Assembly: GCA_050486305.1 (NCBI GenBank) | Contig: JBJHDA010000001.1 | Location: forward strand, 115,071 to 179,070 | Reading direction: 5' to 3' | Origin: Candidatus Saccharimonadota bacterium | GTDB lineage: Bacteria; Patescibacteriota; Saccharimonadia; Saccharimonadales; SLHW01 | DNA length: 64,000 nt | Shown: positions 519 to 62,499 of the stretch, piece after piece | Numbering within the stretch: position 1 is the stretch's first letter | Layout of the letters: every line of letters begins with the position of its first letter | Notes under the pieces: generated by a model | What the model was told of the DNA's origin: nothing | Databases searched by the model: none | Seen by the model: the letters and a program-made list of their open reading frames with translations, nothing else | Program-made: the position numbers and the translations under genes

Positions 519-1811
519 GTGCAGCATAGTGTCAGCGAACTAGTTTTACCGAATGGCGTCAGAGGGCTATTAGTACATATCCCGACGGCAACAGTCATGT
601 ATAGCGAATTCAACTTTCGGGCCGGTGAGTATTTGGTAGATAAGAAAAAATGGGAAACACCTCATCTTATGGAGCACATGGTGCTCGGCGCGAACGAACT
701 TATACCAAAGGCCCGGACGTTTCAGGCGGAATTTGAGAAGAATGGGGCTTACAGTAATGCCAGCACCGGCAGCTATGACATCAGCTATGAAGCCGAGTGT
801 GCGGACTTTGAGTGGGACAGAATACTTGATTTGCTGCGCATCGCGATAACCAAGCCGTTGTTTCTGCCAGAAGAGTACGAGGCAGAGTTCGGTAACGTCC
901 GCGAAGAATTAACCTCACGCTCGAACAATCACTTTCGCAATCTGAGTTTGGCGATGCGAAAAGGCTTTGGTTTTTACGCGATGACGGACAAAGAGCGGCT
1001 CAAGCTGATGGACAATGTATCAGTGCAGGATATCAGGGACCATTTCAATAACACGCACACCACGAGCAACCTGCGTTTCATTATTGCAGGTAAGCTGCCG
1101 ATGAAGCGCCGTAAAGTGATCAAAGAGCTGCTGGGCGGGCTCGAACTGCCAAAAGGTGAGGGTCGGGTCGACTTACCTGACGAAGAACCCCAGACATTCA
1201 CCGAGCCATTATATATCCATAATAATACGGTGAAGAATCTTTATTTTTATATCGATACATTTTTAAATCGCCGGATGCGCGACCCCGAACAGGACGCACT
1301 GAACCTCGTAAACAGCATGCTAACAGCGACATTATACTCACGCATCCTAGGTACTGCCCGCGAAAAGGGCCTCGTATACGGCATGAACTCTGGCGTAAAC
1401 CAAACCAAGCTAGCGAGTAACTGGTGGTTTGGCTCACAGGTCATGCCGCAAAATGCCGAGGCACTGTTTGATATTATTCGCCGGGAACTGCAAGCTGTCT
1501 TCGAAGGAAAGATCAGCGAGGAAGATACGCACGAAGCGAAGCAGTACGCACTTGGGCGGTTTCAGCGGAGCGGGCAAACGGTGGCTGGTGTCGCGATTGG
1601 CTATGCGAATCGCTATTTCTTTGATGACGAAATCGAAGACTATTACAAGATGCCGGAGCGAATTCGGGCGGTTTCAAGGAATCGCATCGTTAGTATCACG
1701 CAAAGCATGTTCCACGATAACGTTTGGGGTATTGGCGTCCTCGGCAGCAGCGGTAAGGACTTTACCCATAAGCTGGAGCAAAAGCTACAGCCACTGTGGC
1801 GCAAGCCGTAA
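519..1811 (+). CDS. M16 (pitrilysin/insulinase) family zinc peptidase
   Basis: Inverted zincin motif HLMEH (HxxEH) lies near the N-terminus, and the ~430 aa length fits M16. The track ORF starts at 384 but overlaps secA; in-frame GTG at 519 just after the secA stop was chosen (start uncertain). Confidence 0.75.
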   Translation: MQHSVSELVLPNGVRGLLVHIPTATVMYSEFNFRAGEYLVDKKKWETPHLMEHMVLGANELIPKARTFQAEFEKNGAYSNASTGSYDISYEAECADFEWDRILDLLRIAITKPLFLPEEYEAEFGNVREELTSRSNNHFRNLSLAMRKGFGFYAMTDKERLKLMDNVSVQDIRDHFNNTHTTSNLRFIIAGKLPMKRRKVIKELLGGLELPKGEGRVDLPDEEPQTFTEPLYIHNNTVKNLYFYIDTFLNRRMRDPEQDALNLVNSMLTATLYSRILGTAREKGLVYGMNSGVNQTKLASNWWFGSQVMPQNAEALFDIIRRELQAVFEGKISEEDTHEAKQYALGRFQRSGQTVAGVAIGYANRYFFDDEIEDYYKMPERIRAVSRNRIVSITQSMFHDNVWGIGVLGSSGKDFTHKLEQKLQPLWRKP

Positions 1812-2756: not shown

Positions 2757-3920
2757 ATGCAGCCGCAAGAGCCAAACCAAAACACAAATAATGTCCCGTC
2801 CGGCCAAGGACCTCCTTCGCAGCCAGCGCCCGGTCCTGCGCCAGTGATGCAGGGTCAGCCAGGCAGCCAAATTCAGCCAGATACTCCAGCTGGAGGGGCA
2901 GCTGCTGCCCAACAGCAGCCGGCAGCATCGCCGTTGCAGCCGGTTCAGCAGCAAGCGACTGTTATCGGCCCTTCGCCGACAGAGCAGGGACAGCAAGCAG
3001 CACCAGCAGCAGGTCAGCCGCCTATGCCTCAGCCGACTCCCGCCGCATCGCCGCCGCAGCAGCCATCTGAGCCGACTCCGGCCACTCCACCACAGCCACC
3101 GCAACAGCCTGCAGCCGTAAACAGCGCTCCCGGCAACCCTGGGTCGCCGATGCAGCCAGTGACGGGTACAGGATCGATGCCGCAGCAGCCACAACCGATG
3201 GCTCCGCCTCAACAGCCAACACAGCCAAACTTTAGCTATCCGACTGAAGCTACCAAAAAGTCACCGCTTAAAAAGGTGCTGATTGCGGCTGGAGCGGTTG
3301 TACTCGGGTTCGCTGTTTTAGGTGGCAGTCTCGCGCTTTTCGGCGGACTGCTCGGTGGTAATGTCTCGTACGGTGATATGACGCGGACAGCCACAACAGC
3401 AGATGATCGGGCAAATATATCAGTAGAACATCCTGTTGAGATGGAAGAAGTCTTCACTGGTCCGAGCAGGCTGGAGGTCAGGCACAAAGGGGAAGATGGA
3501 CAAGGAATGTACTCTGCCGTTAATGTGGATTCGGTTTTTGTCGGCAGCGAGTCGATGGCAGAGTTTAAACAGGAGTTCATCGGCGATTTAACCGACACAT
3601 CTAGTGATACTTACAAACTGTTTATTGATGAGATGAACCGCTCAGCTGCTGATAATGATCTTGACGATTTGCAGATTGGCGCATTCCAGACGTATGAAAA
3701 TGATGACGGCTCTATCGCCGACGGGCTGTTTGCCGAATATACGGGCAGCATACCTCGGGTTGATAATGAATCGAGCCTTGTTCCGGTCCGCGGTGTATTC
3801 ATTCTCGTCTTTAACGACGAAGGCTATCTGCATACGATTGATGTGGCCGCTCTTGAAGAGGTCTGGGATGCAAACAAAACAACCTTCGAAACGGTAGTCG
3901 CGAGTGTTCGGCTTGAATAA
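2757..3920 (+). CDS. Membrane-anchored protein with long P/Q/A-rich N-terminal low-complexity region; function unknown
   Basis: 387 aa ORF with about 160 aa of Pro/Gln/Ala-rich sequence. This is followed by one TM helix (VLIAAGAVVLGFAVLGGSLALFGGLLGG) and a ~190 aa non-repetitive C-terminal domain. Confidence 0.6.
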   Translation: MQPQEPNQNTNNVPSGQGPPSQPAPGPAPVMQGQPGSQIQPDTPAGGAAAAQQQPAASPLQPVQQQATVIGPSPTEQGQQAAPAAGQPPMPQPTPAASPPQQPSEPTPATPPQPPQQPAAVNSAPGNPGSPMQPVTGTGSMPQQPQPMAPPQQPTQPNFSYPTEATKKSPLKKVLIAAGAVVLGFAVLGGSLALFGGLLGGNVSYGDMTRTATTADDRANISVEHPVEMEEVFTGPSRLEVRHKGEDGQGMYSAVNVDSVFVGSESMAEFKQEFIGDLTDTSSDTYKLFIDEMNRSAADNDLDDLQIGAFQTYENDDGSIADGLFAEYTGSIPRVDNESSLVPVRGVFILVFNDEGYLHTIDVAALEEVWDANKTTFETVVASVRLE

Positions 3921-3957: not shown

Positions 3958-5046
3958 GTGAACCAGTTAAAAAAAGATACTGAGCAGTTACGGCGTGAAG
4001 TGCAGCAGGCGTGCGATAAGCTTGCTATTGCGAAGCTTGCGAAAGAACATCAGCAGCTGACAGAAGAAATGGCCCAACCGACGTTTTGGGATAACAGCAG
4101 TGAAGCTCAAGAGAAGTCAAAACGTCACGCCCGGCTGAGTGAGCAAATCACGCCGTGGCTAACACTCCAGGCAAACACAGACGAAATACTGGAGCTAATT
4201 GAGCTGGGCGACCCTTCACTGACATCTGATCTAAATGCTCAGCTCGGGCAGCTGCAAAAAACATTCTTGTCACTAAAGGACCAGCTCAAGTTTACCGGCC
4301 AGTATGACCGGCACGATGCAATCATGACGATCCACGCCGGTGCAGGCGGTACTGATGCGCAAGACTGGGCAGAGATGCTGCTTCGGATGTATGTCCGGTG
4401 GGCAGAGAGCGAAGACATCAACGCTTCTATCTTAAACGAATCTGCCGGCGATGAGGCTGGCATAAAGAGTGCGACGCTTGAGCTGTCCGGTAATTTCGTC
4501 TTCGGGAGATTAAAAGGCGAGCACGGTGTACACCGTTTGGTTCGGCAGAGCCCGTTTAATAGCGATAATTTACGCCAGACGAGCTTTGCTATGGTAGAAG
4601 TTATTCCAAAGATAGATCAGCCAGAGGAAGTAAAGATCGACGAGAAAGACATCAACGTCGATGTTTACCGCAGCGGAGGAAAGGGCGGTCAATCGGTTAA
4701 TACGACGGATTCAGCTGTTCGGGTAACACACCTGCCGACGGGCATCAGCGTAGCGATACAGAACGAACGCTCGCAGATTCAAAACAAGGAGACAGCTATG
4801 ACGATTTTGCGCTCTAAATTAGCACAAATGCAGTTAGAGCAGCATGCGGAGAAAATAGAGAACCTCAGAGGTCCGAATACTTCAGCAGAGTGGGGAAACC
4901 AAATTAGAAGTTACGTACTCCATCCGTACAAACAGGTAAAAGATATACGGACCCGCTACGAAACCAGTGACCCGGACAGAGTCCTGAATGGCGACCTGAA
5001 CGAACTCATTGAATCATACATGGAGTATTCACTCGGTAAGAAGTAA
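3958..5046 (+). CDS. prfB: Peptide chain release factor 2
   Basis: GGQ motif (SGGKGGQSVNTTDSAVRVTHLPTGI) and the RF2-specific SPF tripeptide (RQSPFNS) are both present. It is a single uninterrupted ORF from GTG 3958. Confidence 0.93.
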   Translation: MNQLKKDTEQLRREVQQACDKLAIAKLAKEHQQLTEEMAQPTFWDNSSEAQEKSKRHARLSEQITPWLTLQANTDEILELIELGDPSLTSDLNAQLGQLQKTFLSLKDQLKFTGQYDRHDAIMTIHAGAGGTDAQDWAEMLLRMYVRWAESEDINASILNESAGDEAGIKSATLELSGNFVFGRLKGEHGVHRLVRQSPFNSDNLRQTSFAMVEVIPKIDQPEEVKIDEKDINVDVYRSGGKGGQSVNTTDSAVRVTHLPTGISVAIQNERSQIQNKETAMTILRSKLAQMQLEQHAEKIENLRGPNTSAEWGNQIRSYVLHPYKQVKDIRTRYETSDPDRVLNGDLNELIESYMEYSLGKK

Positions 5047-5086
5047 AATTATAATAATATTATAATGTTATTATAATAAAATTATT
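5044..5086. repeat. 43-nt almost pure A/T tract (one G), related to the tract at 32408-32462
   Basis: TAAAATTATAATAATATTATAATGTTATTATAATAAAATTATT begins at the prfB stop codon. It shares the exact 18-mer TTATTATAATAAAATTAT with 32420-32437 and contains several TATAAT hexamers. Confidence 0.8.
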
Positions 5087-32407: not shown

Positions 32408-32462
32408 AAAATATAATAATTATTATAATAAAATTATAATATTATTATAATAATGTTATAAT
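32408..32462. repeat. 55-nt almost pure A/T tract (one G), related to 5044-5086
   Basis: AAAATATAATAATTATTATAATAAAATTATAATATTATTATAATAATGTTATAAT. ATTATTATAATAA occurs twice within it, and it shares the 18-mer TTATTATAATAAAATTAT with the first tract. It runs into the ATG at 32461. Confidence 0.8.
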
Positions 32463-55247: not shown

Positions 55248-55651
55248 TAAATGTTCTTTTAGTATTGACAATTACGTACTTATTTGCTAAAGTATCAATT
55301 CGTAAACAGGTTTTATCTTGTTTACGTACCTTATATCCCCATTCTAGCAGAAATGCTGGAAGCAAAATTATTAGAATGTTTTAGAGCGCGCTCGTACATA
55401 TTTACGTATTACCCTCCACGTAACAATGCACACACAAAGGGCTTCTTGCTCTAAAACATGCTAATCCCTTTAACTTATACCTTTCCTACTATAAACCGTA
55501 GGTAAAGAGCCAAAAGTGCATCTGCAGTTGGCTCGGTCAAAATGGTGAGTACGTATTGTATTCCGAACTCTGCTTAGAAGGCAGGGGGATGGAGGCGCGG
55601 ACACGTAAATTAATGTGTATCCGACGCTTCACCGGGTGGGTTGAAGGGTGT

Positions 55652-55700
55652 AACGAGCCTCTAGTGGTGCCCACCCCCTCTAGAGGCTCGTTTTATTTTT
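55652..55700 (+). terminator. Strong hairpin + T-tract oriented for plus-strand termination, with no annotated plus-strand gene upstream
   Basis: A 13-bp stem AACGAGCCTCTAG / CTAGAGGCTCGTT (55652-55664 and 55680-55692) is followed by TTTTATTTTT. On the minus strand the hairpin is followed by UUACACCC, so there is no U-tract. Confidence 0.6.
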
Positions 55701-56340
55701 AGGTGATAACGTTGCGGGTTTCAATGGGTATAGTGCCATCCGCAAAGATTATTTCAGTAAGTAATGCCGTCACTTCTTTCGTTACGTCATTTAAAATGTC
55801 TTTTTGCGAACGAGTAAATGTGCCGAGAACAAAGTCTGAGCTATCAATGTCCTCCGGCTCTTTCGGTCCTATGCCGACCCGAATCCGGCCGAATTCTTCG
55901 CCGATATCAGAAATGATTGATTTTATGCCGTTGTGACCACCACTACCCCCGCCTAACCGGCTTCTTATTTGGCCGAGGGGGATATCGATATCATCGTGTA
56001 CGACGATACAGTTTTTCGTCTCAATAGTATGGTACCGAAGCAGCTGTTTTACCGCCCGACCGCTATTGTTCATTAGCGTGGCAGGCTTTTGAATGATGAT
56101 CTGGCTGTCACTCAGGTGGGTCTTCGTGATGTCCGCCTGTAGCTTTTTGCTGCTTTCCCACTTTGGAAATTGATGCTCGCGGGCAAAAGCATCTACACAT
56201 AAGAAGCCAGCGTTATGTCTTGTGTTCTCATATTTCTTTCCGATATTGCCGAGACCGATAATCGCAAAAGTATTTTCTGACGCGAGGCTATAAAGCGGAA
56301 TCGAGCTAAGGATCTGCGGTTTTTTCTGGAGTAGTCCCAT
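55699..56340 (-). CDS. pth: Peptidyl-tRNA hydrolase
   Basis: IIGLGNIGKKYENTRHNAGF, VVHDDIDIPLG and GGHNGIKS motifs. The ATG directly follows the der stop codon. Confidence 0.93.
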   Translation of the reverse strand: MGLLQKKPQILSSIPLYSLASENTFAIIGLGNIGKKYENTRHNAGFLCVDAFAREHQFPKWESSKKLQADITKTHLSDSQIIIQKPATLMNNSGRAVKQLLRYHTIETKNCIVVHDDIDIPLGQIRSRLGGGSGGHNGIKSIISDIGEEFGRIRVGIGPKEPEDIDSSDFVLGTFTRSQKDILNDVTKEVTALLTEIIFADGTIPIETRNVIT

Positions 56341-58445: not shown

Positions 58446-60281
58446 CTATAGAGCAATATTGGTTGGATCGTCATCAGAAGTTGTATTCTGTTTTTCCTGT
58501 TGTGTTCCGCCAGGCTGAATGACGTTACCAGGCTGAGTATTGCTTGGGGCTGAATCTGGGGTCGGTGGCGTAACTGTTTCGCCAGTTGGCGATACGACGG
58601 AAGAGGCCGGAAGCTCACTATTGGTTGGACCGTTTTCGGCTTCTTCTTCGGCGAGCTTATTCAGGTCGGGTGCTTTTGCATTAGTGTCGCTGATTGGCTG
58701 GATGACTCGTTGACCACCTGTTGCTGTGCTTGGTGCATTCTTATCCTCTTTTGAGGGAACAGCCGGGCTTGGGTCTTTCTTTTCTTCTTGCTGCGCTTCT
58801 GGCGGTGTAGTAACCTCGTTGGCGCTAGCTTCTTCGTTGGCTTGAGAATCTGTTTGTGCAGCCTCAGGTGTTACGGGTGAAGGCTGAACTGGCTGTTCGG
58901 CGACTGGTGATTCACTAGCACCAGTCGCAGGTGGCGACGTAACGGTCTCAGGGGTAGTGGTGTCGGAATTTGTTTGATTGGCATCACTCTGTTCTTGTGG
59001 AGCTTCTTTTACTGCAATGTTTTGTGCCGGTGCGCTGCTTGGCAGAGTAAAGCCATTACCTTGATCCAGCTGGTTGTTATTCTCTTGCTCTTGGGGCGCA
59101 GGTTCTGTGGGCTTAACAGCTGGCGTGTCAGCAGGTGCTGGTTCGTTGCTGTGGAGTTGATTTTTTACAAAATCATCAATTTTCGTATCAATTGCCGCCT
59201 CTTCCTCTGCCGTTGTCTGTGCTGGTGGCGTATTGGTTGGGACTTGTGGCTGACTCACGTCAGACGAAGCCGTGGAAGCCGTTGCATCTGCTTCTGCTGC
59301 TGAAGAGGTGTTGCTTTGATCGGTTGCTGCCGGATCTTCTGAGGGTGCTGCAGAGGGCTCGTCGTTGGTGGCTGTCTGTTGTTGACTGCTTGCTGTTGAG
59401 ACATCTGGCATTGTCGGTGCTGGTGGAGGAGGCGGAGTGGCTTCAGCGGATTGAAGATTCGCGGACGCCTCTTCCTCTGCCGTTGTCTGTGCTGGTGGCG
59501 TATTGGTTGGGACTTGTGGCTGACTCACGTCAGACGAAGCCGTGGAAGCCGTTGCATCTGCTTCTGCTGCTGAAGAGGTGTTGCTTTGATCGGTTGCTGC
59601 CGGATCTTCTGAGGGTGCTGCAGAGGGCTCGTCGTTGGTGGCTGGATTCGTGCTGCCCGGTGGCTGCTGACTCGTAGCCGGTTCTGGTGCTGGCTGTGGG
59701 GCGCTTGGCTGACTTGTTGTGGCAGCGGCTGCACTAGGGGTTGCATTACTCTCATCTGCTGGCTGTTGCTGATCAGTGGTCTGGTTCGAGGTGTCTTGCT
59801 GTGCCTCAGGCGTTGATGGTGGCTCAGAAACAGCGGGTGCTGTATCTGTCGTGACTGGTTCTGGTGGAACGCTTGTCGCAGGTTCGTCTGCAGGTTTTTC
59901 CGAAGACTCACCAGACCCGTTTAAGAGTTCGTCGGCAACTCTGGCAACATCCTCCAATGTAACTTGCGACTTTACTAAGTATTTGTCCGCGCCAAGCTTA
60001 TCTGCACGCTCTTTGTCTTCTGCTTGCGATAGCGCTGTCATCATGACTACTTTTGTATCTTCAATTCCTGGTGTGGTGCGGAGTATATCGAGCATATCAA
60101 AGCCGCTAATTTTCGGCATCATTACATCAGAAATAATAAGGTCGGGTTTTTGTTTTGTCGCGAGCGCAAGCGCTTCCTCGCCGTCTTTTGCAGACACAAC
60201 TTCATACCCTTCTGCGAGAAGGCGTGCTTCATATATTTCTCGTAGATTATTGTCATCTTCGACGAGCATTATTTTTGCCAT
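58446..60281 (-). CDS. Response regulator receiver domain fused to a ~480 aa low-complexity P/T/S/A/Q/E-rich tail
   Basis: The N-terminal receiver (VEDDNN, DLIISDVMMP, MMTAL, YLVKS) is a paralog of 12611-12997. The remainder is compositionally biased and contains two identical 59-aa blocks. Confidence 0.85.
   Translation of the reverse strand: MAKIMLVEDDNNLREIYEARLLAEGYEVVSAKDGEEALALATKQKPDLIISDVMMPKISGFDMLDILRTTPGIEDTKVVMMTALSQAEDKERADKLGADKYLVKSQVTLEDVARVADELLNGSGESSEKPADEPATSVPPEPVTTDTAPAVSEPPSTPEAQQDTSNQTTDQQQPADESNATPSAAAATTSQPSAPQPAPEPATSQQPPGSTNPATNDEPSAAPSEDPAATDQSNTSSAAEADATASTASSDVSQPQVPTNTPPAQTTAEEEASANLQSAEATPPPPPAPTMPDVSTASSQQQTATNDEPSAAPSEDPAATDQSNTSSAAEADATASTASSDVSQPQVPTNTPPAQTTAEEEAAIDTKIDDFVKNQLHSNEPAPADTPAVKPTEPAPQEQENNNQLDQGNGFTLPSSAPAQNIAVKEAPQEQSDANQTNSDTTTPETVTSPPATGASESPVAEQPVQPSPVTPEAAQTDSQANEEASANEVTTPPEAQQEEKKDPSPAVPSKEDKNAPSTATGGQRVIQPISDTNAKAPDLNKLAEEEAENGPTNSELPASSVVSPTGETVTPPTPDSAPSNTQPGNVIQPGGTQQEKQNTTSDDDPTNIAL
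59196..59644. repeat. Two 100% identical 179-nt direct repeats (59196-59374 and 59466-59644) inside the response-regulator tail
   Basis: A direct comparison of the printed sequence shows every base identical over 179 nt, at an offset of 270 nt. Confidence 0.95.
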
Positions 60282-62283: not shown

Positions 62284-62358
62284 GGCCTCATCGTCTAACG
62301 GCTAGGACGCCAGGTTCTCATCCTGGTAATCGGGGTTCGATTCCCCGTGAGGTCACCA
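62284..62358 (+). tRNA. tRNA-Glu (anticodon CTC), CCA encoded
   Basis: A cloverleaf can be read by eye. The acceptor stem is GGCCTCA/TGAGGTC and the D arm is GTCTAACGGCTAGGAC. The anticodon stem CCAGG/CCTGG carries the loop TTCTCAT. The T arm is CGGGG-TTCGATT-CCCCG, followed by discriminator A and CCA. Confidence 0.9.
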
Positions 62359-62360
62359 AT

Positions 62361-62395
62361 ATAAAAAGTTCATCGTAAGATGAACTTTTTATATT
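62361..62395 (+). terminator. Rho-independent terminator after tRNA-Glu
   Basis: A perfect 14-bp stem ATAAAAAGTTCATC-GTAA-GATGAACTTTTTAT with a U-rich 3' side. Confidence 0.75.
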
Positions 62396-62499
62396 GGTAG
62401 TTCGCCGCAGGCGAACATTGAACCTAGGTTCGAAGACAAGGCACACGCGCAGAAGCTTGCTTCGAGCATGGGCTGCAGTCGCATCGACCAACGGAAGAT

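Follow-up and report, generated by a model that had tools for sequence, protein, structure and literature searches.

In a 64,000-nucleotide (nt) stretch of the genome of a Candidatus Saccharimonadota bacterium (NCBI GenBank assembly GCA_050486305.1, contig JBJHDA010000001.1, positions 115,071 to 179,070 of the forward strand; hereafter the window, numbered from its first nucleotide), the non-coding gap between dprA and pth (55248-55698) very likely contains the gene for an uncatalogued, independently transcribed, and highly structured non-coding RNA (ncRNA). The predicted transcript of ~403 nt lies at 55298-55700 on the plus strand; its start is placed at an invariant A five nt past the -10 hexamer and its end in a U-tract, both as read from sequence signals. 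This RNA has no match in Rfam 15 and appears to represent a new family of large bacterial ncRNA. An earlier inspection of the window (the original prediction) had suggested that the interval either encodes a novel RNA of ~400 nt or is a multi-site operator controlling dprA. The first suggestion is borne out by a conserved promoter and terminator, by homologues at more than 70 loci, by covariation in the predicted helices, by a G·U bias that marks the folded strand, and by the lack of an Rfam family.

The sigma-70-type promoter at 55265-55293 (plus strand) that the original prediction had pointed out is indeed present. It consists of a -35 TTGACA (55265-55270), a 17-nt spacer, and an extended -10 element, TGc-TAAAGT (55285-55293), with the TG at 55285-55286, and a promoter scan recovered it with 10/12 matches. 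Of note, a match of this quality is by itself no more frequent than expected by chance in such A+T-rich DNA (four sites in 3 kb versus 4.4 expected); its significance instead comes from its conservation, because TTGACA, a spacer of exactly 17 nt, and TAnnnT are found in all 62 full-length homologues. Similarly, the block GTATTGACA...TTTGCTA around the promoter is invariant in a five-species alignment. At the other end of the unit, a predicted intrinsic terminator (55652-55700, plus strand), which may have a second role, is composed of a G+C-rich 13-bp stem (-24.9 kcal/mol) formed by AACGAGCCTCTAG (55652-55664) and CTAGAGGCTCGTT (55680-55692), a 15-nt loop with GGUGCCCACCCC, and a U-tract (55690-55700) running into the stop codon of pth (55699-55701, minus strand). 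As originally noted, the hairpin at 55652-55692 is followed by a T-tract only in the plus-strand direction: it is followed by TTTTATTTTT on the plus strand and by TTACACCC, with no U-tract, on the minus strand. Our terminator scan missed this hairpin because the loop limit of the scan was 3-8 nt. A 3' hairpin with the invariant loop GGTGCCCACCCC is present in 62/62 full-length copies, most of which also have a T-rich tail. We consider it strongly supported by these sequence signals that 55298-55700 is a stand-alone promoter-RNA-terminator transcription unit. In our model, the near-consensus promoter would initiate transcription at ~55298 on the plus strand, opposite to both neighboring genes, and factor-independent termination would end the transcript at the pth stop codon, giving an RNA of ~403 nt (332-523 nt in relatives). 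The terminator hairpin had also been described as the strongest of the window, which does not hold: it is among the top three, and the most stable local hairpin, at 62355-62398 (plus strand; -27.1 kcal/mol), has a perfect, A+T-rich stem of 20 bp and a loop of 4 nt; it overlaps the 3' end of the tRNA-Glu(CUC) gene (62284-62358) and presumably is the terminator of this tRNA.

To collect homologues, public metagenomes were scanned with one exact interior invariant block of the RNA, TCTAAAACATNCTAANCCCTTTA (21 bases). This block matched 72 metagenome contigs, and several metagenome-assembled genomes (MAGs) of Saccharibacteria also carry the RNA. Sixty-two copies are full-length (332-523 nt), of which 54 are distinct; 47 of the distinct copies are under 90% identical, and the mean pairwise identity is 63%. 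Despite this divergence, 74 alignment columns are invariant and 41 are nearly invariant among the 54 distinct homologues. The RNA region shares 76% and 73% of its nucleotides over ~450-470 nt with two relatives (loci L010 and L006), in which Pth is only 59-60% identical at the amino acid (aa) level, and, therefore, the intergenic block is better conserved than the flanking protein genes. In more distant relatives (Pth 48-50% identical), invariant blocks alternate with hairpins that vary in sequence and length and are still paired. The MAG GCA_035510355.1 ("Candidatus Saccharimonadales bacterium") carries the RNA at 144 bits without the exact pattern and with the long helix maintained by G·U pairs, supporting that the family is wider than the pattern-based sample. 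Using the covariance model R1 (see below), we found the RNA to be single copy in the 64-kb window; the interior pattern is absent from IMG/VR. In one contig (L036) there are two inverted copies, at 1159-1373 (minus) and 2911-3126 (plus); the second is 97% identical with single-base deletions in homopolymer runs and is probably an assembly or read artefact rather than a true duplication.

The conservation of the RNA is also reflected in where assemblies break. A contig scan with Pth yielded four distant loci, and three contigs ended within the terminator of the RNA. The assembly ends inside the 3' hairpin, ~31-55 nt into the element, at L001, L002, L003, L005, L008, L009, and L011. The broken contigs come from independent assemblies (SPAdes co-assemblies, Logan, and NCBI MAGs), and each reaches about one k-mer length into the RNA. 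We attribute these breaks to a sequence that is common to co-occurring strains, as is the case at ribosomal RNA (rRNA) genes, and, thus, to a side-effect of extreme conservation. In practical terms, the RNA is a recurrent metagenome assembly breakpoint, and annotation pipelines miss the gene or overprint it with spurious open reading frames (ORFs).

The plus strand of the region folds with a predicted free energy of -150 kcal/mol (z = -7.3 versus shuffled controls). For the covariation analyses, one alignment was used for the 5' domain and another for the 3' helices. RNAalifold on the raw full-length MAFFT alignment recovered only helices in well-aligned blocks, and the variable hairpins needed covariance-model realignment; for the 5' domain, a consensus from a majority vote over single-sequence folds was used to build the covariance model R1, and 66 matches were realigned to it. 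In the resulting 5' domain with 49 modeled pairs, 87.5% of 3002 cells are paired, and 32 of the 49 pairs have double-sided changes that cover 364 cells. The covariation score was 0.285 compared to 0.126 +/- 0.005 in shuffled alignments, with none of 500 shuffles reaching the observed value; in slid controls, in which the partners were moved by 1-3 columns, the score was at most 0.069, i.e. 4-5 times lower. For the long helices P3 and P4 and the terminator, which were analyzed in the full-length alignment, 97% of the cells are paired and 170 are compensatory, and again 0/500 shuffles reached the observed value. Across helix cells, G·U outnumbers A·C (245 versus 92), which identifies the plus strand as the folded strand. 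The original prediction had proposed an Rfam scan and a covariation analysis across relatives as ways to examine the region, and both came out in favor of a novel RNA, with no family match and with compensatory changes in 32/49 pairs of the 5' domain. The 5' and 3' ends of the RNA form local covarying hairpins and are not paired with each other. A mutual-information scan for other tertiary pairs revealed one extra hairpin (see below), the remaining signal being phylogenetic.

The predicted fold, all elements of which are on the plus strand, would comprise a 5' hairpin (P1), a pyrimidine-rich linker, a long, near-invariant helix, P3, that closes a three-way junction, a neighboring long-range helix, P4, around a variable domain, and a 3' hairpin with a freely varying stem and an invariant loop. 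P1 (55301-55326; CGUAAACAGG / CUUGUUUACG) has 10 pairs, eight of which have double-sided changes (e.g. AACAGG/CUUGUU versus AGCGUC/GACGUU); it corresponds to the inverted repeat reported in the original prediction, which is present as CGTAAACAGG-N6-CTTGTTTACG. P1 is followed by the pyrimidine-rich joining region ACCUUAUAUCCCCAUUCUAGC (55327-55349), a conserved block that is unpaired in the consensus and contains the first of several C-rich elements. The 5' domain also includes the optional inserted hairpin P2 and the variable hairpin P3.2. P3 (55370-55465), which encloses the three-way junction, is formed in the window by AUUAG-AA-UGUUUUAGAGCG (55370-55388) and UGCUCUAAAACA-UG-CUAAU (55447-55465) and in the consensus by GUUAG-AU-UGUUUUAGAGCG and CGCUCUAAAACA-UA-CUAAC. 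Among its 17 pairs (99.7% paired), 12 are invariant and four have double-sided changes at both ends (GUUAG/CUAAC versus AUUAG/CUAAU), and in one homologue (L089) the pairing is kept through G·U. Because covariation would have sufficed for pairing, the sequence invariance of the 12-bp core of P3 suggests recognition by a protein or an alternative pairing. Most homologues have two copies of a partner for GUUAG, one in the 5' linker (UUCUAAC) and another in the 3' strand of P3 (ACUAAC), and the pairing with covariation support is that with the latter. The linker UUCUAAC could form an alternative hairpin with GUUAG, and we consider a conformational switch possible from these sequences. In the clade of the window, the linker copy reads UUCUAGC and there is local pairing instead (window 55342-55348 and 55461-55465 versus 55370-55374); specifically, the linker UUCUAGCA (55342-55349) pairs with UGCUGGAA (55354-55361) in the minimum free energy fold. 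A pairing of the linker with the G-rich 3' strand was also considered and dropped, as it lacked covariation support.

Within the three-way junction, hairpin P3.1 (55402-55423) has eight pairs, six of them with double-sided changes, and the invariant loop AUUACCCUCC, which contains an anti-Shine-Dalgarno-like CCUCC. While its stem is UUACGU/ACGUAA in the window and AAGU/ACUU in most other clades, the loop (UGUUACCCUCC in the consensus) has UACCCUC in 54/54 homologues. P4 (55466-55648) pairs CCCUUUAAC (55466-55474) with GUUGAAGGG (55640-55648) around a variable multi-hairpin domain; it has 10 pairs (99.3% paired), and in 13 sequences a C-G pair is switched to G-C, together with U·G to U-A elsewhere. 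The adjoining P3 and P4 could stack coaxially in the modeled fold. The extra hairpin from the mutual-information scan, GGCGCGGACAC ... GUGUAUCCGACGCU (55594-55629), lies in the 3' domain and is identified by the covarying alignment columns 421/442 (GC20, CG14, AU7, UA3), 422/441, and 419/445. Finally, nine of 10 pairs in the terminator stem have compensatory changes around the invariant loop. Thus, the invariant C-rich loops UUACCCUCC and GGUGCCCACCCCCU sit in hairpins with covarying stems. A G-rich element, GGGUGGG (55634-55640), is a candidate pseudoknot partner of CCCACCC (55670-55676) in the terminator loop; such a pseudoknot, GGGGUGGG x CCCACCCC (GGGUG x CACCC), would be sterically plausible, and both sides are essentially invariant.

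The genes neighboring the RNA gene, i.e. dprA, pth, der, and topA, are all on the minus strand and encode DprA (PF02481), peptidyl-tRNA hydrolase (Pth; PF01195), Der/EngA, and topoisomerase I. The closest public relatives of the window Pth are from Candidatus Saccharibacteria/Saccharimonadales. In nearly all loci that are long enough to judge, the gene order is topA<-dprA<-[RNA->]<-pth<-der with the RNA on the plus strand, and the RNA is always on the strand opposite to these four genes. This stable genome position fits vertical inheritance and, as judged from the sequences compared, members of the family occupy a single conserved, syntenic site throughout the Saccharibacteria (Saccharimonadales and relatives). 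Deviations from this order are of two kinds. First, extra genes, which are unrelated and in either orientation, are sometimes inserted between the RNA and pth. In two NCBI MAGs, this slot is occupied by a 105-aa ORF without a Pfam match (L010, 3649-3966, minus; L011, 2478-2795, minus), and other relatives have one to three unannotated ORFs there, making it a variable insertion point beside a stable RNA gene. Second, dprA is missing and the RNA adjoins topA at L026, L029, L035, L048, L064, L086, and L089; the retention of the RNA at these loci speaks against a role that is specific to dprA. No dprA was called between the RNA and topA in the closest Logan relatives (L006 and L007, 3643-4612) either, and tblastn detected only a weak DprA-like stretch of 42%, so that dprA may be degraded here.

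This arrangement bears on a role of the RNA in cis, in which transcriptional interference or duplex formation with read-through RNA would let a strongly transcribed antisense unit block or modulate transcription that continues from der-pth into dprA-topA, and RNA structure would be secondary. Consistent with such a role, the RNA is always opposite to der, pth, dprA, and topA, and the terminator hairpin lacks a U-tract on the minus strand, so that pth transcripts could read through. Moreover, a mere 18 nt separate the dprA ATG (55247) from the -35 hexamer, so that any leader of dprA has to extend into the RNA gene; its leader or promoter would have to lie within that gene on the other strand, unless dprA is read through from pth. 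(In the ORF list, dprA begins with a TTG at 55271 and would thus run into the -35 hexamer; the Pfam match, which covers residues 3-207 with a start at ATG 55247, agrees with the ATG.) However, interference needs neither 115 invariant or near-invariant positions nor invariant loops and covarying helices, and the RNA is kept where dprA is missing and where unrelated genes separate it from pth. Therefore, we regard a primarily cis-acting function as improbable.

We also considered that the RNA could be a highly diverged RNase P RNA, 6S RNA, transfer-messenger RNA (tmRNA), or signal recognition particle (SRP) RNA that the Rfam models miss in this candidate phyla radiation (CPR) lineage. The 4227 covariance models of Rfam 15 were used with gathering thresholds on the window and with relaxed filters at E<=10 on a 651-nt region and 16 homologous loci. 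With gathering thresholds, tRNA-Glu was the sole match in the whole window; the relaxed search of the region and the 16 loci returned only scattered microRNA, small nucleolar RNA, and small RNA noise. The sole name found repeatedly was MIR4378, at 22-25 bits against a threshold of 90 bits, on the long helix. The relaxed search gave no match to RNase P RNA (RF00010/RF00011), 6S RNA (RF00013), or tmRNA, no SRP match was found in the window or the 16 loci, and ARAGORN found no tmRNA in the window. Bacterial RNase P RNA is recognizable by the motifs CR-I and CR-V, which are the conserved strands of its P4 helix. Among the 54 homologues, CR-I (GGAAAGUCC, at most one mismatch) was found in one and CR-V (ACAGAA...GGCUUA) in none, and neither the tRNA-like T-loop GGUUCGAAUCC expected of a tmRNA (at most one mismatch) nor the SRP domain IV motif (at most three mismatches) was found in any. 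The statement in the original prediction that hallmarks of tmRNA, RNase P, SRP, and 6S RNA are lacking therefore stands.

Among these known RNAs, RNase P RNA is the most similar in general character, with a similar size of ~400 nt, housekeeping-grade, near-rRNA-level conservation, long-range helices, a possible pseudoknot, and an independent gene with a strong promoter. It differs from the Saccharibacteria RNA in that the latter lacks the CR-I/CR-V (P4) signatures, the pairing of the ends in P1, and a model match. Likewise, 6S RNA, which is notoriously hard to detect by sequence, resembles it in being a stand-alone and sigma-70-driven RNA that is presumably abundant and easily missed by sequence models, but 6S RNA is a ~180-nt rod that has a central bubble and is closed by pairing of its 5' and 3' ends, whereas in the Saccharibacteria RNA each end forms a local hairpin and the fold includes a three-way junction and two long helices next to each other. 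It is important to note that CPR RNase P RNAs are reported to have diverged and that those of 10/35 circular genomes escaped default thresholds (PMC8172020), which adds to the case for a diverged known RNA. However, RF00010 still detected the diverged CPR RNase P RNAs, among them those of two Saccharimonadia genomes, and many of their conserved features were retained; the cut-off in that study was a bit-score of 5, compared to E<=10 here (PMC8172020). On this evidence, a disguised member of one of the four families is quite unlikely.

Even less plausible is a guide or scaffold RNA of a mobile element or defense system (omega RNA, tracrRNA-like RNA, retron, or bridge RNA). The size and the ornate fold would fit, and a 10-nt identity, GUUUUAGAGC, to what we take to be the start of a type II-A CRISPR repeat is suggestive at first sight. 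However, GUUUUAGAGC pairs with a perfect internal complement and is not part of a repeat array. Moreover, the adjacent genes are housekeeping genes and include none for a nuclease, transposase, or reverse transcriptase, the site is syntenic in more than 70 loci, and the RNA is single copy in the window and absent from IMG/VR.

The second suggestion of the original prediction was that a dense array of TTACGT(A) motifs forms a set of transcription factor binding sites controlling dprA. We found TTACGT at 55272, 55322, and 55402 on the plus strand and GTACGTA at 55549, all as originally listed, and on the minus strand at 55418 and 55603, i.e. one base from the listed 55417 and 55602. The claim that well under one copy is expected by chance is also correct: five copies in 337 nt compare to 0.29 expected from the window density (55/64 kb), with P(>=5) = 1.3e-5, and the motif is partly palindromic like many operators. 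Yet, the copies are largely halves of RNA stems. Those at 55402 (plus) and 55418 (minus) form the two strands of the single P3.1 stem, the 3' strand of P1 accounts for the copy at 55322, and a stem of the 3'-domain hairpin for that at 55603 (minus); in other clades, these stems stay paired but differ in sequence. The one at 55272 falls into the promoter spacer, which is not conserved. Of the 54 homologous RNAs, 39 lack TTACGT altogether and 14 contain a single copy (almost always in the 3' strand of P1), and only that of the window has four. Because, in addition, the hexamer is over-represented across the whole window and the RNA is retained in genomes without dprA at this position, a multi-site operator is extremely unlikely. 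Based on these sequence comparisons, the TTACGT enrichment is real but would be a by-product of self-complementary, ACGU-containing stems in one lineage. Window-wide, there are 55 TTACGT copies on both strands versus 29.3 +/- 5.9 in dinucleotide-preserving shuffles, none of 100 of which reached 55; candidate explanations for this excess are a codon or oligonucleotide bias or a signal related to methylation or restriction.

The original prediction had stated that no plus-strand ORF exceeds 37 codons, which holds for ATG starts, while with bacterial starts there are three TTG-initiated ORFs at 55284-55454 (56 aa), 55556-55702 (48 aa), and 55265-55384 (39 aa); that these encode one or more small proteins can nevertheless be dismissed with near certainty, because every one of them starts with TTG, stop codons interrupt the matching frames in the closest relatives so that the ORFs are not conserved, and the variation among homologues consists of hairpin insertions and deletions of any length, some with UUCG-type loops, and of compensatory pair changes rather than synonymous-site changes.

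Returning to a structured RNA transcribed from its own promoter, we lean toward the idea that it represents a new class of large, ornate ncRNA that is core and vertically inherited in Saccharibacteria, and possibly in further CPR lineages, and that acts as a trans-acting ribonucleoprotein subunit, a ribozyme, or a global translational regulator with anti-Shine-Dalgarno-like loops. In our working hypothesis, the RNA would act in trans, as a housekeeping ribonucleoprotein or a regulatory RNA, and it would work through three C-rich surfaces that are invariant and exposed, namely CCCCCA of the linker, the CCUCC-containing UUACCCUCCAC loop, and CCCACCCCC in the loop of the terminator. They may bind G-rich partners, i.e. 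Shine-Dalgarno regions of mRNAs or a protein, or may lock the fold via the pseudoknot with the invariant GGGGUGGG. This proposed mechanism is modeled on RNAIII of Staphylococcus aureus, in which the loops of 3' hairpins are C-rich and pair with Shine-Dalgarno regions. Every loop with CCUCC is by its nature complementary to GGAGG. Similar to RNAIII and RsaE/RoxS, the Saccharibacteria RNA has several exposed C-rich loops, one of them in the terminator hairpin; unlike these RNAs, with which it shares no sequence or structural homology, it is far more strongly conserved through helices and junctions, and class-wide.

In overall architecture, the RNA resembles OLE, ROOL, GOLLD, HEARO, and raiA motif RNA, which are stand-alone, several-hundred-nt, multi-helix RNAs with many invariant nucleotides in junctions and loops, and which were also discovered by comparative genomics with no obvious function. 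The raiA RNAs often adjoin the competence gene comFC and, similarly, the competence gene next to the Saccharibacteria RNA is dprA. Nevertheless, the Rfam models of these five RNAs gave no match to the window region or the 16 loci even at E<=10, and the conserved sequences, the helices, the host phylum (Saccharibacteria/CPR), and the topA-dprA/pth-der context differ. Moreover, ROOL and GOLLD are often prophage-associated, while the Saccharibacteria RNA is absent from IMG/VR. To our knowledge, few such large bacterial RNA classes have been described; by its size, number of helices, density of invariant nucleotides, and breadth, the RNA described here ranks with these rare ornate classes. We found no description of it in the searched literature, and a transcriptome preprint from 2022 states that the cultivated model TM7x had no validated small RNA at that time (bioRxiv 10.1101/2022.03.25.485537).

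Saccharibacteria, like the wider CPR, are ultra-small epibionts with stripped-down genomes. An RNA of ~400 nt that is retained at one locus throughout the group with ~115 invariant or near-invariant positions very likely matters to the biology of these bacteria; ribozymes and the cores of ribonucleoproteins typically show conservation at this level. If our interpretation is correct, the RNA would be a lineage-specific "housekeeping" RNA on a par with, and unrelated to, 6S and RNase P RNA. The defined gene ends, the secondary-structure model, the mutable invariant loops, and a covariance model for searching provide an experimental handle on it.

Several considerations weigh against this interpretation. 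The transcript, its ends, and its abundance are all deduced from sequence signals, and a minority of homologues have only a weak U-tract past the 3' hairpin. The homologue set is biased by having been gathered with one exact 21-base pattern, so that the true breadth of the family, for example in oral TM7 or other CPR classes, may differ from that of the sample. The proposed roles of the C-rich loops and of the pseudoknot are suggested by invariant nucleotides, which lie outside covariation tests. Lastly, because CPR RNase P RNAs escape default Rfam thresholds, Rfam by itself does not formally dispose of a very aberrant known RNA (PMC8172020).

Elsewhere in the window, we noted two further features. 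A minus-strand gene (58446-60281) encodes a 611-aa protein in which a response-regulator receiver domain at the N terminus precedes a low-complexity tail of ~480 aa that is rich in P/T/S/A/Q; this tail contains a near-exact internal duplication of ~75-80 aa (NDEPSAAPSEDPAATDQSNTSSAAEADATAS...), and the homologues in relatives are called Response_reg only. In addition, an inverted-repeat scan detected clusters of overlapping A+T-only palindromes (ATTATAATA-type) at 32419-32462 and 5044-5085, which could be promoter/operator DNA or low-complexity intergenic DNA.

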